From the NCBI GenBank assembly GCA_016839765.1, contig JAEOTP010000064.1, positions 1 through 57,043 on the forward strand: a stretch of 57,043 bases of DNA. The letters run 5' to 3'. Numbering within the stretch: position 1 is the stretch's first letter; every line of letters begins with the position of its first letter. This document shows, piece after piece, positions 1 through 15,151 of this stretch. A program made the position numbers and the translations under genes. The notes beneath the pieces are model-generated. The model searched no databases and was not told the origin of the DNA. It was given only the letters and a program-made list of their open reading frames with translations. The stretch comes from Promethearchaeota archaeon (GTDB lineage Archaea; Asgardarchaeota; Lokiarchaeia; Sigyniarchaeales; SOKP01).

Positions 1-2742
1 CATCTGTTTATCTGCTTTTTGCTCGACTACTGCCTTCTCTAAGAAATAGGGATCAATTATAGCTGAAATTTGTTTAAAATCATAATGTCTGGGATCAATC
101 GCTTTTAATCTGCATGTTGCTGAACATTTTCCACATCCTTTACAGATAGCAGGATTGATATGCGCCTTTTTTGTAGGAATACTAACATCCTCATATTCTT
201 GTTTGAGATCAGTCAATGAGATAGCTTTAAATTGACATACTTCAGCGCACCTACCACAACCGTTACATTTTTCCACATTTACTCTCATATCTTTAAAGAA
301 ACACTCAATTGATAGCAGAAATGAAAGTAATTCTAATTTTGTTGTTGAAATCTTTTTTTGACTTAAAAATCTACTCGATCTTCCTGCTGCACCATTTGCT
401 TCTGAAATGCAATCTTGGATATTTTTGGGCCACTGAGCACACCCACACACAAATATCCCATGCCCAGTAAAATCTAAAGGTCTTAATTTCGTATGTGCTT
501 CAATAAAGAATCCATTTACGTCAAGCGGAATATCAAGCATTTCTGATAAAATATCTAAATCATCAGGAGGAACCATGGGAGTTGCTAATATAATTAAATC
601 TGAATTAAATTCAATAATCTCATTTGGGTTGATATCATCTCGCAGTTTAATTAAATATTTTTCAGGATTTTGCCCCACTTTAACAATATCAGGAATATTT
701 TCAAGATTATATCTAACATAATCCGCGATATTTTTTCTTTCACTAAATATATCTTCAAGTTCTTTTTTAGCCATATGAAGATCTCTGAATAATACATGTA
801 TTTCAGCTTTTGGATTAATTTCCTTTAAGATATTCATATTTTTTATTGCATTACTGCAACATACATTTGAACAATATGAAAAACCTTCTTTTTGTCTTGC
901 CTTCACGCAAAGGATAATAGTTATATGCTTTATCTTATTAAGCCAAGAAATATCCTTACTCTTTAGTTTTTTTTCCAATTCTAAAAGAGTTAAAACTTGT
1001 TTATTATCTTTGTTGTATTGAAAAAGTCCAATTGGTTTAAATTCTTGACTACCTGTAGCAATTATTATAATTCCAATGCTTATATCATGAATTTTTTTAT
1101 TTAGGTCTAAAATCGATATCTCGTAATTTCCAATTGATCCTGTAATGTTTTCAATTTTAGAATTCAGAAAAATTTTAATTTTTGTATTCTTTCTGACTTC
1201 TTCTTCAAGATTAAAAAGAAAATCTGAACTACTTTGCTTAGTAGGGTATAATACGTTAATTTCATTAATGTTACCTCCTAATTGATTTTCCTTCTCTAAA
1301 AGAATTGTATCAAAACCCTGTTTTCCTAAATTTAATGCCGCAGTCATTCCAGAGACTCCACCGCCAATTACTAATGCTCTTGGAGTGATCTTAATTATAT
1401 TTTTTTCTGGTAGTATATCAATTTCCTTTTCTTTTATTTGTGAATATCTTACTGGTGCTAATAATGCTGCTATTTCACCTGCGATTCCACTGGCATTGAC
1501 TACAGTTTCTGATATGTTCATTGGGCTCTGATTAAAGCCACATAAATATATTCCTTCCTTCGTTGATAAAGATTTATTAAAGTAGGATTGTGATTTGAAA
1601 AACTGGTATTTATCTTGTTCAATTCCCAAAATTTTAGCTAATTTTTTAGCCCCTTTTGAAGATACTAAAGGTGCTGCTAGAACTACTAGATTTGCTCTAT
1701 AAGTTTCATCTTTTCCAGTTTTCATATCTTTATAATGTATTATTAAATCATTTGATCCTGACTCTTCTTCAATGTTATCTATTTTGCTATTAATATACTT
1801 AATATCATGCTCATCTTGAGCACTTTTAGTGTATTCATAAAAATCACGACCAAAAACTCGGATATTATGTCTAAATACGGAGATCTGTGCATTCTCAGTG
1901 TAATCTTTTGTTATAATTGCATTTTTTGCTGTATACATGCAGCACACTCGGGAACAATAAGGAATATGATCTTCCAAATACCCAGATCCCGCACATTGAA
2001 TGAAAGCAATCTTTTTCGGCTCTATTTCATCGCTTGGTCGTAAGATTTGCATACCAAATGGACCTGTTGGACAGAGCATTCTTTCATATTCTAAAGCATT
2101 AACCACATTCTTATGTTGATATCCCCATTTAGAATGTAATTCTTTACCAAGCATATCGAATCCAGTGGCAACTACAATTGCGCCTACATTTACTTCTATT
2201 TCTTGGGGTTTTTGATCAAAATCGATTGCCTCACCTTTACATACTTTTTGGCATACTCCACATACATTCCTATTTAAATAAAGACATATTTCAGGATCTA
2301 TTACATATACAGGAGGAGTTGCTTGAGGAAAAGGCATATATATTGATTTTCTTTTACCTAAATTCATGTCAAAAATATTAGGGGTTTCTATTTTTGGACA
2401 CTTTGCAGCACAATCACCGCATCCCTTACATTTAGATTCATCAACATATCTTGGATGCTTTAAAACAGACACATTAAAATTTCCAGCCGTTCCAGAGACA
2501 TGTTGTACTTCAGATAAAGTATATAGCTCTATATTGGGATTTCTATATATTGCAACCATTTTAGGTGAAAGCATGCATAAAGAGCAGTCATGTTGTGGAA
2601 ATAATTTATCAAATTGGGCCATATGACCTCCTATTGATGCATTTTTTTCCACCAGGAAAACTTTAAATCCTAACTCCGTTAAATCAAGAGAAGTTTGGAT
2701 TCCAGCGATACCCCCACCTATTACTAAAACGCTACCTTTCAT
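1..2742 (-). CDS. hdrA: Large HdrA-like FAD/Fe-S oxidoreductase with two FAD domains; 3'-partial, runs off window edge
   Basis: Manual translation from ATG 2742 gives MKGSVLVIGGGIAGIQTSLDLTELGF..., CKGCGDCAAKCP, YCSRVCCMYTAK, a second GGGVSG motif and C-terminal CKGCGKCSATC. Close paralogue of 5631..8729. Absent from the ORF track because there is no stop inside the window. Confidence 0.9.
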   Translation of the reverse strand, partial: MKGSVLVIGGGIAGIQTSLDLTELGFKVFLVEKNASIGGHMAQFDKLFPQHDCSLCMLSPKMVAIYRNPNIELYTLSEVQHVSGTAGNFNVSVLKHPRYVDESKCKGCGDCAAKCPKIETPNIFDMNLGKRKSIYMPFPQATPPVYVIDPEICLYLNRNVCGVCQKVCKGEAIDFDQKPQEIEVNVGAIVVATGFDMLGKELHSKWGYQHKNVVNALEYERMLCPTGPFGMQILRPSDEIEPKKIAFIQCAGSGYLEDHIPYCSRVCCMYTAKNAIITKDYTENAQISVFRHNIRVFGRDFYEYTKSAQDEHDIKYINSKIDNIEEESGSNDLIIHYKDMKTGKDETYRANLVVLAAPLVSSKGAKKLAKILGIEQDKYQFFKSQSYFNKSLSTKEGIYLCGFNQSPMNISETVVNASGIAGEIAALLAPVRYSQIKEKEIDILPEKNIIKITPRALVIGGGVSGMTAALNLGKQGFDTILLEKENQLGGNINEINVLYPTKQSSSDFLFNLEEEVRKNTKIKIFLNSKIENITGSIGNYEISILDLNKKIHDISIGIIIIATGSQEFKPIGLFQYNKDNKQVLTLLELEKKLKSKDISWLNKIKHITIILCVKARQKEGFSYCSNVCCSNAIKNMNILKEINPKAEIHVLFRDLHMAKKELEDIFSERKNIADYVRYNLENIPDIVKVGQNPEKYLIKLRDDINPNEIIEFNSDLIILATPMVPPDDLDILSEMLDIPLDVNGFFIEAHTKLRPLDFTGHGIFVCGCAQWPKNIQDCISEANGAAGRSSRFLSQKKISTTKLELLSFLLSIECFFKDMRVNVEKCNGCGRCAEVCQFKAISLTDLKQEYEDVSIPTKKAHINPAICKGCGKCSATCRLKAIDPRHYDFKQISAIIDPYFLEKAVVEQKADKQM

Positions 2743-5171: not shown

Positions 5172-5609
5172 TTATATAACTTTTAAAGGCCCTAATTCTT
5201 TAATTTGATTCGTAAATTCAGTAATTAAATCCGCGAAGCGCTTGCCTTCTGAAGCACTAACCCATTCTAAACGAACTCTTTTTTCATTAATCCCTAGTTG
5301 TTTTATCACTATTTTATGCAACCTTTCAAATCTTTCTTTAGCATATTCGTTACCTGAGATATAATGACAATCTCCAATATGGCAGCCAGTGACTAATACT
5401 CCATCAGCTCCTTCCTTTAAAGCCTTCATGACAAATACCGGATCTACTCTTCCAGAACACATAACTCTTATAATCCTCATATTGGGAGGATATTGGAACC
5501 TTGAGACTCCTGCTAAATCCGCTCCTGCATAAGAGCACCAATTGCAGCAAAACACAAGTATCTCAGGATTAAAATCTGGATATTTAACTTTAGTTTTTGC
5601 TTTTGGAAT
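5172..5609 (-). CDS. mvhD: MvhD/HdrA-associated [2Fe-2S] subunit, Cys form; probable ATT start
   Basis: FCCNWCSYAGADLAG, RVMCSGRVDP, GCHIGDCHY. The frame stays open upstream of GTG 5555 (..DFNPEILVF) to an in-frame TAA with no ATG/GTG/TTG. ATT at 5609 follows AGGTG by 7 nt. Confidence 0.9.
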   Translation of the reverse strand: MPKAKTKVKYPDFNPEILVFCCNWCSYAGADLAGVSRFQYPPNMRIIRVMCSGRVDPVFVMKALKEGADGVLVTGCHIGDCHYISGNEYAKERFERLHKIVIKQLGINEKRVRLEWVSASEGKRFADLITEFTNQIKELGPLKVI

Positions 5610-8600: not shown

Positions 8601-8729
8601 ACCTCCAATTGAGGGATTTCTTTCTACTAAATATACCTTAAAACCTAATTCTGTTAGGTCTAATGAAGTTTGAATACCTGCGATTCCTCCTCCGATAACT
8701 AAAACAGATCCTTCCATTATTTTTTTCAA
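5631..8729 (-). CDS. hdrA: Large HdrA-type heterodisulfide reductase flavoprotein (two FAD domains, all-Cys)
   Basis: GGGIAG x2, LDKTFPTNDCSLCILAPK, ICHCG, YSCS, ASCTPRTHE, QCSWVH and ferredoxin motifs. Confidence 0.92.
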   Translation of the reverse strand: MKKIMEGSVLVIGGGIAGIQTSLDLTELGFKVYLVERNPSIGGRMAQLDKTFPTNDCSLCILAPKMVEVFRNPNIKLMTYHEVKKVSGEPGNFSAIILKKPRYVDETKCKGCGDCAIKCPKIEVPNLFDMKLGKRKSAYIPFPQAVPPIYLIDPELCLKINKGVCGVCAKVCQAEAIDFEQKPMEIELKVGAIVVATGFDIPAEKLTSRWGYRYNNVVSALEYERILCASGPFGGHVLRPSDQKEPEKIAFIQCAGSRDLHEGVPYCSSVCCMYTAKEAIITKEHSNRSQCFVFRHDIRAYGKNFYEFTQRAQKEYGVKYIQTKISKIEEDSETNDLIIHYENLKTGEFNDFQANLVVLATPLVPSNGTKILSNVLGIELDEYEFFKEIDYFNKSKSTKDGIYLCGFCQGPMDIPETVADASGVAGQIAAFLNSVKFEQIKEKQLEVPELETKDTDEPRIGVLICHCGINIGKYVHVPLLAEYVRTLPNVVHCEDNLYSCSSDSQSRIKELITNHHLNRFIVASCTPRTHEALFQETCQEVGLNKYLFEMVNIRDQCSWVHMDDAEAATQKAKDLIRMAIAKSRLLKPLREELLKITPTALIIGGGIAGMSAALNIANQGFKTFIVEKESILGGNLNYLNVLYPTEQNASDFLNQTIDLVEKNENIQVFLKGKINNIRGYVGNYVVTIADSNSKTQDLSIGTIIVATGGKEYKPKDLFQYNNQNKNVITQLELEQILKEKGKSWLTKINRITTVLCANARQLEGITYCSNICCGNSIKNISLLKKLKPELEIVVLYRDIQMAKKKYEEYYRERRKDAIFLRYDLENLLIIKQINKNPERYNIKFYDTNLQDFLEFETDLIILSTPIIPADNLEELAKMLKVPLDRNGFFLEAHVKLRPLDFATDGIFLCGCAQWPKNIQDSISQANGAAARASRFLSAKEITTSGIVAEVDPINCIGCGKCESICPYNAIDILESVKDFEDISLTVKKSFINSALCKGCGTCAATCPNGAISIKQYDFDQITAMIESYLLET

Positions 8730-12690: not shown

Positions 12691-12762
12691 AACCCCCCCT
12701 TTGCAAGGTAAGTCACCTTAAAACTAAAATTTTATTTTAAGATTCATTCTACGGGAGTAGTT
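12691..12762 (-). promoter_or_regulatory. Eukaryote-like SECIS element overlapping the vhuD stop codon
   Basis: Minus strand GTAG-A-ATGA-ATCTTAAAAT-[AAAATTTTA]-GTTTTAAGGT-GA-C-TTAC: AUGA/GA kink-turn core, 10-bp helix (2 G-U pairs), apical loop beginning AAA, lower helix GTAG/TTAC plus AACT(A)CTCCC/GGGGGGGTT. Confidence 0.8.
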
Positions 12763-13202
12763 ACTACTTTCTTTTTAATAGATTTCATATCCATGGTATT
12801 AATCGGATTTGGTCCCGCCCGCCTTATTTTTTCAAGAGCGTCTTCAACGCTTTTAACTAGTTTTTCAGATTCTGCACCGCTTAACCAGTACATGTTGACT
12901 CTTTGACTTCCAAACCCTCGAGATTCTAAAATTCTATTTGCCAAATCTACATGTCTTTGGGCTGTATAATTACCATTTTTAAATTGACATTCATCAGGTC
13001 TTCATCCAACAACCATAACACCATCAGCTCCAGATTTGATAGTATATAAAATATGTTTCACATCAATCCTTCCAGTACACTTAACTTTGATGATTTTTAC
13101 TGATGGTGTATACTTTAAACGAGAAACTCCAGCCAAATCAGCAGCACTATAACCTCACTTTAAACAAGCAAACATAATTATTTTATAGTTATAACCTTCC
13201 AT
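12744..13202 (-). CDS. vhuD: Selenocysteine-containing MvhD/VhuD (152 aa; Sec16, Sec67)
   Basis: ATG 13202 after GGAGG: MEGYNYKIIMFACLK-U-GYSAADLAGVSR...KCTGRID...GADGVMVVG-U-RPDECQF. In-frame TGAs at 13155-13157 and 13002-13004 match Cys in the paralogue motifs CNWCSY and GCHIGDC. Confidence 0.92.
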
Positions 13203-13210
13203 TTTGATGT

Positions 13211-15151
13211 TTAACCTCCTTCTAGTAATCCATCTATCTCAGCATATAATTGATAATCACGGTAATAACGAATATCAATAGCTTGTGTAGGACAACAGGT
13301 TGCACATATCCCGCATCCATCGCAATTTATTTCATCAACAACAGCGCCTTCCTCATCGACTATTTTAATAGCCATCTTAGGACATTCTTTTTCACATCTT
13401 CTGCATGAGATACAAAACTCATTATCTACTTCAGCAGTAATAAGCTCAATATCTATCTCTCCTGGGGCTGTTAATTCAGCGACTTTACTCGCTGCTGCTC
13501 TTGCTTGGGATACGGAATAGGCAATGTCCTTAGGACCTTGAGCAAAGCCCGCAATAAAGATACCTTTTGTTTTAGTTTCTTGCGGCATTAAGCCAAAGTG
13601 GGATTCAGTTAGAAATCCATTTCTGTCAGCATCCAAATTTAAGACTTTTACAATTCGTTGTGTTCCTTCAGAAGGTAATGCTGCGGTAGATAACACTACT
13701 AGATCAGCATCTATTTTAATGATTTCATCAGTTAAAGAAGAGTAAACTCTAATTTTAATGTCTTTACTCTCAGGGTCTTCTGAAAATTCACCAACTTTAC
13801 CGCGAATCATCTTAATATCGGAGTCTTTAGCACGCTGATAATATTCTTCGAAACCTTTTTCATTAGTTCTTATATCAATATAGCATATAGTAATATTTGC
13901 GTCTGGAAATTCTTCTTTAAGTAATTTTCCATTCTTTAATGCTAACATACAACAAACACCGCTACAATATGGTCGTTCTGAGTCTCTACTACCGACACAT
14001 TGGATAAAAACGATTTCTTTTGGTTTTTTATTGTCTGATAGGCGCCTTACATGTCCCTCTAAAGGTCCGTTTGGTGCTAGTATTCTTTCTAATTGAGCTT
14101 GAGTTATTACATTTTCGAACTCACCATAACCATATTCACCAAAAGGTTCATAAATATCCCACCCCGTTGCTATGATTATTGTGCCAACTTTAAATTTTAC
14201 CTCTTTAGGTACTTGACTGAAATCTATAGCATCTAATTCACAAGCTTCTATACAGCTAAAACATTCAACGCATGAATCCCTGTTTACATCATACAAAAAT
14301 GGTACTGCTTGACCGAATGCAATATCTATGGCCTTACGAGCGCCCAAATATTCATCAAAATAGTTAGAAGTATAAACGGGACAAACTTCAGCACAAGCTC
14401 CACATCCATTGCAATCTTCATTGATGTATCTTGGTTTCATCTTAACTATTATATTATAATTACCAACATATCCAGAAACCTCTTTTACTTCACTAAAACT
14501 TAGAATCTCTATATTTTCATTTCGATTGACATCTAGCATTTTTGGACCACAGATTCATATAGCACAGTCATCAGTGGGAAATGTCCGGTCTAATTGTGCC
14601 ATTCTACCTCCAATAGTTGTTTTACTATCTACAAGATAAACCTTAATACCTTGATTAGCAAGATCTAAAGCAGCATTCATCCCTGCTATTCCTCCACCCA
14701 CTACCAGTGTAGCTTTTTCAACAGGAACAGTTTTAATTGGCACTATTTCAAGTTGTTTTGCTCGCTCAATCCCACTTTTTACTAAGATTTTAGCTTTGTC
14801 TAAAGCTTCTTCATTCTTTTCTGTACACCAAGAACAATGTTCTCGAACATTAACCATCTGAAAATAGTATGGATTTAAATCGGTTTTGGCGATTGAATCT
14901 CTATAAATCGGTTCGTGAGTACGAGGAGTTCAAGCAGAAGCTACAATACGATTTAATTTCTTCTCTTTGATGTCTTCAATAATCTCGTTTTGACCGCTTT
15001 CTGTTCATAGGAAACTGTGCTGTTTCGAGACAATTACTCCATCGAGTTTTTTAGCAAATTCTACTAGCTTATTGCAATCAACTTTGCCACGAATATTAAT
15101 ACCTCATTGACAAGCATAGTATCCAATCCGATGCATATCAGATTCTTCCAT
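13211..15151 (-). CDS. hdrA: Selenocysteine-containing HdrA (646 aa; Sec16, Sec49, Sec74, Sec199)
   Basis: One continuous frame from ATG 15151 (GAGGTGG upstream) joins ORFs 14555..14857 and 13211..14539. TGAs at 15104-6 (ACQ-U-GINI), 15005-7 (FL-U-TE), 14930-2 (ASA-U-TPRTHE) and 14555-7 (DDCAI-U-ICGPK) each align to a Cys of the 5631..8729 paralogue. Confidence 0.92.

Follow-up and report, generated by a model that had tools for sequence, protein, structure and literature searches.

The window analyzed here, a 57,043-nucleotide stretch of Promethearchaeota DNA, carries on its minus strand an hdrA gene followed by vhuD (mvhD) and a run of further redox genes (Table 1). With TGA read as selenocysteine (Sec, U), the hdrA interval was translated into 646 residues with no interruption, which bears out an earlier note on this DNA that had described four TGAs (codons 16, 49, 74, and 199) in an otherwise intact frame; a plus-strand reading of the same interval was ruled out by its many stops. 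Standard annotation splits hdrA into fragments and misses vhuD, which starts 8 nt past the hdrA stop on the same strand and was absent from the plain open reading frame list.

Table 1. Features of the hdrA-vhuD locus, with positions in the window
Feature	Positions	Strand	Remarks
hdrA, 646 aa, four Sec (U16, U49, U74, U199)	13211..15151	minus	ATG at 15151; TAA stop at 13211
Sec16 TGA	15104..15106	minus	C-x-U after strand 1; probable HA3 ligand
Sec49 TGA	15005..15007	minus	probable HA3 ligand
Sec74 TGA	14930..14932	minus	end of strand 3; probable HA3 ligand
Sec199 TGA	14555..14557	minus	canonical HdrA Sec of the C196-x-x-U199 pair (= methanococcal Cys/Sec197)
mvhD/vhuD, 152 aa, Sec16 (13157-13155) and Sec67 (13004-13002)	12744..13202	minus	NF045873, E 1e-45
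lokiSECIS	12713..12747	minus	pattern match: AUGA, 9-bp stem (9/9 pairs), 11-nt A-rich loop ending AG, GA
FrhB/FpoF-like subunit, 500 aa	11129..12631	minus	2x[4Fe-4S] and F420/FAD domain; syntenic in relatives
Second FrhB/FpoF-like subunit, 370 aa	10002..11114	minus	syntenic in relatives
HdrD/GlpC-like Fe-S protein, 400 aa	8726..9928	minus	dicluster and two CCG domains; syntenic in relatives
All-Cys permuted tandem HdrA (HdrL/BamE-like), 1032 aa	5631..8729	minus	alignment to HdrA
All-Cys mvhD paralogue	5172..5555	minus	start possibly further upstream

The hdrA product is 46 to 47% identical to solved methanogen HdrA, matched five solved HdrA sequences in phmmer (E 1e-165 to 1e-201), and had the same structures as its top Foldseek ranks. 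It has an N-terminal Fe-S domain, a TrxR/FAD domain, and inserted and C-terminal ferredoxin domains, and the ligands of the static clusters are all kept. The FAD residues E355 and K406, which we take to be the flavin-flanking Glu/Lys pair numbered E356/K409 in 5ODC, and the HA4 cysteines C385, C396, C400, and C401 were present in 80/80 orthologues. The full-length AF2 model was of middling quality (pLDDT 71).

When Asgard and methanogen HdrA were aligned with TGA as U, the recoded sites fell on Cys or Sec columns; all four align to Cys or Sec in the solved structures, and the phmmer alignment placed the X (Sec) of Methanococcus maripaludis 9SFI in the column of U199. As the earlier note had claimed, each also matches a Cys of the all-Cys tandem HdrA in the same locus. 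This paralogue is permuted, so the matching CHCG, YSC, and ASCTPRTHE motifs lie in its internal N-terminal-type domain and CSLC in its first TrxR unit. Another large all-Cys tandem HdrA-like frame, open for 928 aa, occupies positions 52-2736 (minus strand) and reaches the contig end.

The order FrhB-FrhB-HdrD-tandem HdrA-mvhD downstream was kept in every relative with sufficient flank. Residues 1-158 of the larger FrhB-like protein include an extension, about 150 aa long and at the N-terminus, that has no Pfam match. No hdrB was found in the hdrA operon; five full-length hdrB-like genes lie elsewhere in the genome. A contig assembled in an independent study (run X5) spans 14889-15128 and differs from the window at two positions only, 14898 and 15014, from which we deduce that the TGAs at codons 16, 49, and 74 are retained there. 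RNA contigs (run X19) cover part of the gene, though at a small share, and thus do not demonstrate hdrA expression.

One SECIS element behind vhuD

A single lokiSECIS behind vhuD is common to six in-frame UGAs, four in hdrA and two in vhuD; both the two-Sec vhuD and the shared element had escaped the earlier note, which was right on the Sec reading of hdrA. The element was the sole match around hdrA and vhuD and fits the definition published by Mariotti exactly; the distance between it and the first UGA is 2,359 nt. The vhuD stop (12746-12744) doubles as the UGA of the SECIS core. A lokiSECIS was found at the equivalent place in 76/76 orthologous loci with sufficient flank, overlapping the vhuD stop in 51 of them, and its stem shows compensatory pairs at positions 2, 4, 6, and 7.

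An Rfam search gave no match for the lokiSECIS, and RNAfold did not return it as the structure of lowest energy (z 0.06 to -1.3), as is expected of its non-canonical core. A hairpin that RNAfold placed at about 12715-12690 is distinct from the SECIS. On the published model, hdrA and vhuD would be carried on one mRNA, and the lokiSECIS would recode all six UGAs while sparing the overlapping vhuD stop.

Conservation of the recoded codons

To describe conservation we used 80 orthologous loci, the most distant at about 76% identity. Of the 101 other genomes searched within the family, 76 had a close orthologue, and at the same threshold 0/19 from other families did; the closest loci (97%) belong to Promethearchaeia/Promethearchaeota metagenome-assembled genomes, i.e., Lokiarchaeia. 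Random stops at non-Cys positions, which the earlier note had named as a sign against Sec, were looked for and none was found: 300/300 in-frame TGAs in these loci sit on Cys columns, a placement that cannot be due to chance. The pattern 16/49/74/199 was seen in 52 loci and 16/74/199 in 22; one locus was cut by its contig, and five had an extra TGA at a ferredoxin Cys. The hdrA stop itself was never TGA (63 TAA, 15 TAG), in line with Mariotti's prediction. In two assemblies of one project (L135 and L151), a short duplicated segment introduces a stop near hdrA residue 100, probably an assembly artefact.

A reading of the frame as a pseudogene, an assembly error, or a genome-wide reassignment of TGA could appeal to the origin of the sequence in a metagenome assembly. 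It is next to impossible: the same codons recur in dozens of species, tRNA-Sec and a SECIS are present, and neighboring genes end normally at TGA. The last point agrees with the earlier note, since readthrough at the TGA stops at 8726, 18341, 37286, and 52941 extends the frames by only 2 to 15 residues. Conservation refutes this reading.

A subtler alternative accepts Sec but takes the extra sites mostly as permissive drift, in which a long-range SECIS rescues upstream Cys-to-TGA changes without any special chemistry. Position 49 fits this description, being Sec in 56 loci and Cys in 24 with at least 7 to 9 state changes on the tree, and so do five unrelated genomes in which one of the ferredoxin Cys (297, 300, or 613) has sporadically become TGA; none of these TGAs is off Cys, although Cys makes up only 28 of the 89 codons one step from TGA. 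Against drift, position 16 is TGA in 79/79 loci and positions 74 and 199 in 80/80 each, without reversion down to the lower identity limit of the set, switches are very rare in the roughly 25 other Cys columns, and three other HdrA paralogues in the genome also use Sec16. As an account of the extra sites in general, drift is therefore unlikely, and it likely applies to position 49 only. We conclude that Sec at 16, 74, and 199 is maintained by selection, while 49 accepts either residue, its repeated switching counting against a strict selenium requirement there; rescue of Cys-to-TGA changes by the SECIS is evident at 49 and at the sporadic sites.

The sporadic TGAs fall on canonical ferredoxin CxxCxxC ligands (codon 300 in L122 and L136, 297 in L169, and 613 in L138 and L171) and sit on separate branches. 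Judged from their codons, four of these five genomes would encode a five-Sec HdrA, with seven UGAs per SECIS, exceeding the published maximum of four Sec.

The additional Cys residues on which the earlier note had remarked proved real, with C109 conserved in 76/80 and C201 in 80/80 orthologues; at these two positions the remaining HdrA paralogues of the genome carry V/T and L/I, respectively. A further Cys, C26, is conserved in 79/80. Conservation of Cys 26, 109, and 201 is limited to the multi-Sec orthogroup, although some other HdrA have C26 as well.

Sec machinery

The Sec machinery whose presence the earlier note had made a test of its reading was found in the genome, two of its components as probable matches. 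A tRNA-Sec (62 bits, Rfam) stands directly before SecS (475 bits, above the cut-off), and SelD, above the cut-off as well, has a TGA of its own. PSTK is a full-length match (E 8e-49) below the family cut-off, and EFSec, also below its cut-off, is split between contigs C34 and C75, with one piece at an end of each; both matches are probably genuine. The EFSec halves are at C34:1-150 (minus strand) and C75:1-1110, and these contig ends probably join; tRNA-Sec and SecS are on C34 as well, 4.3 kb from the EFSec piece. With machinery, SECIS, and conservation all found, the Sec reading of the earlier note holds.

Relation to described HdrA proteins

The four-Sec HdrA and its shared SECIS are already known and constitute no new system, since four-Sec HdrA was described in 2016 (Mariotti 2016, PMC4989117) and the same pattern is in a 2024 supplement (Huang, Xiao and Zhang 2024, PMC11227280); this answers the earlier note, which had left the novelty of the form open. 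In the 2016 paper, Loki HdrA has a maximum of four Sec, distributed over five possible sites, and a stop that is never UGA, vhuD is always downstream, and one lokiSECIS serves as many as six UGAs across about 2 kb. The tandem described there resembles ours in its HdrA with as many as four Sec, including the canonical site at about 200, its two-Sec VhuD, and its 9-bp/11-nt lokiSECIS. A SECIS AUGA that doubles as a stop is described there for VhuU.1, as is seen here for vhuD.

The 2024 study catalogued an Asgard HdrA selenoprotein family. Its supplementary file 77, which writes Sec as X, has dozens of sequences with the identical 16/49/74/199 pattern together with CSWC and XICGP, for example Lokiarchaeia GCA_019894885 U_2 and GCA_013375485 U_2; the motif counts are 68 for AXTPRTHE, 48 for FLXT, and 74 for XICGP (PMC11227280). 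Motifs for a fifth TGA (297, 300, or 613) were not found in the supplements, and a term search of the main text did not bring up any discussion of several Sec in one HdrA or of where they lie.

Methanococcal Sec-HdrA (M. maripaludis, 9SFI; PMC13518236) and the Cys-HdrA of 5ODC, 8RVU, and 7BKB share the domain order, FAD signature, and cluster motifs of the protein described here, with Sec/Cys197 equivalent to U199. In contrast, they have one Sec or none, an all-Cys HA3, and neither C109 nor C201, and methanogen HdrA is paired with HdrBC and a hydrogenase or Fdh, whereas the operon here is FrhB-FrhB-HdrD-HdrL.

The HA3 cluster and the proposed electron path

HA3 (A3) is the N-terminal shuttle cluster, which sits on a mobile arm and takes the low-potential electron from FAD; the proposed relay involves a Cys202/205 or Cys-Sec197 pair and MvhD Cys16 (PMC13580544, PMC13518236, PMC12350162). 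The AF2 model of residues 1-140 was good (pLDDT 91.6) and matched the N-terminal domains of 5ODC, 8RVU, and 7BKB with TM 0.88 to 0.93 and rmsd 1.0 to 1.7 Å. The HdrA proteins of M. marburgensis and M. hungatei (8RVU, 7BKB) have exactly four Cys in this domain, aligned to 14, 16, 49, and 74, and these columns hold the sole invariant Cys among 52 N-terminal domains. Because the domain cysteines of solved HdrA exactly match C14, U16, U49, and U74, a ligand list taken from the Cys count would make three HA3 ligands selenolates. The suggestion of the earlier note that an Fe-S cluster has up to three selenium ligands is thus well supported by homology to solved structures, though short of demonstration. 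The invariant His79 could be an alternative ligand to one of the four.

The three sites may instead form selenylsulfide or diselenide redox pairs while C26, C106, C109, and C201 bind the cluster. This reading is close to that of 2016: Mariotti's paper denies that the Sec sites are cluster ligands (PMC4989117), at variance with our assignment of three of them to HA3, the four positions being compared by description. The extra Cys conserved in the orthogroup could indeed replace ligands. However, the 2016 statement counted four clusters only and precedes the 2017 structure, the solved homologues have Cys in this domain solely at the 14/16/49/74 columns, and two-Sec paralogues keep Sec16 without C109 or C201. 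We therefore regard redox pairs as quite improbable.

Taken together, we assign a probability of about 80% to the reading of the locus as a multi-Sec hdrA-vhuD (mvhD) selenoprotein pair of Promethearchaeia (Lokiarchaeia), with a bifurcating HdrA and a three-selenolate HA3. Its most specific part is somewhat less secure but still favored: the HA3 shuttle cluster would be a natural [4Fe-4S] cluster held by three encoded selenolates, or two in the Cys49 forms, and all six Sec of the operon would lie on the mobile arm and the flavin relay. A limited literature search found no published statement of a selenium-ligated HA3.

In the mechanism that we propose, HdrA is a predicted electron-bifurcating enzyme in which C14, U16, U49, and U74 would bind HA3, by homology, and C196/U199 would be the Cys-Sec relay beside the flavin, equal to the Cys-Sec197 or Cys202/205 pair. 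VhuD U16 and U67 would be at its [2Fe-2S] centre, with U67 in what we take to be the GC(H)xxxC [2Fe-2S] motif and U16 corresponding to MvhD Cys16 of the relay. The six selenium atoms would then be on the arm and relay elements that trade electrons with FAD over long gaps, the static clusters remaining Cys, and selenium probably serves faster transfer or tuning of potential. Synteny suggests F420H2, through the neighboring FrhB-like subunits, as the most likely electron input. According to one account of the crystal form, Cys197 from the partner subunit serves as a cluster ligand (PMC9012536); if this residue also binds HA3, its equivalent here is U199, a Sec again.

Structural equivalence of HdrA U16/U74 with VhuD U16/U67 was considered but is not claimed here, the profile alignment lacking significance (probability 0.8 to 13%) and Foldseek giving MvhD only TM 0.48 and E about 0.02; a wide VIA search returned generic alpha/beta folds only.

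A three-selenolate HA3, if true, would correct the non-ligand reading of 2016. Two structure papers of 2026 describe as unsettled what the HdrA Cys-Sec pair, and selenium, contribute to flavin-based bifurcation, and the apparent concentration of selenium on the shuttle cluster and relay of Asgard HdrA bears on that question.

Other Sec genes in the genome

The three other Sec16 paralogues in the genome (C59:55987, C33:15257, and C35:16989) have two TGAs each, in columns 16 and 199. Each is followed by a lokiSECIS, and a two-Sec mvhD lies behind the C59 and C35 copies. Forms of the N-terminal domain with one, two, or three Sec exist, and this natural series, if it is one of cluster ligands, would provide a test of selenium tuning of electron bifurcation. 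Further strict lokiSECIS-like matches were found at C12:3841, C20:10837, C64:64601, and C46:21488, the last of which follows a hydrogenase C-terminal DCULSC motif (VhuU/FrhA-type).
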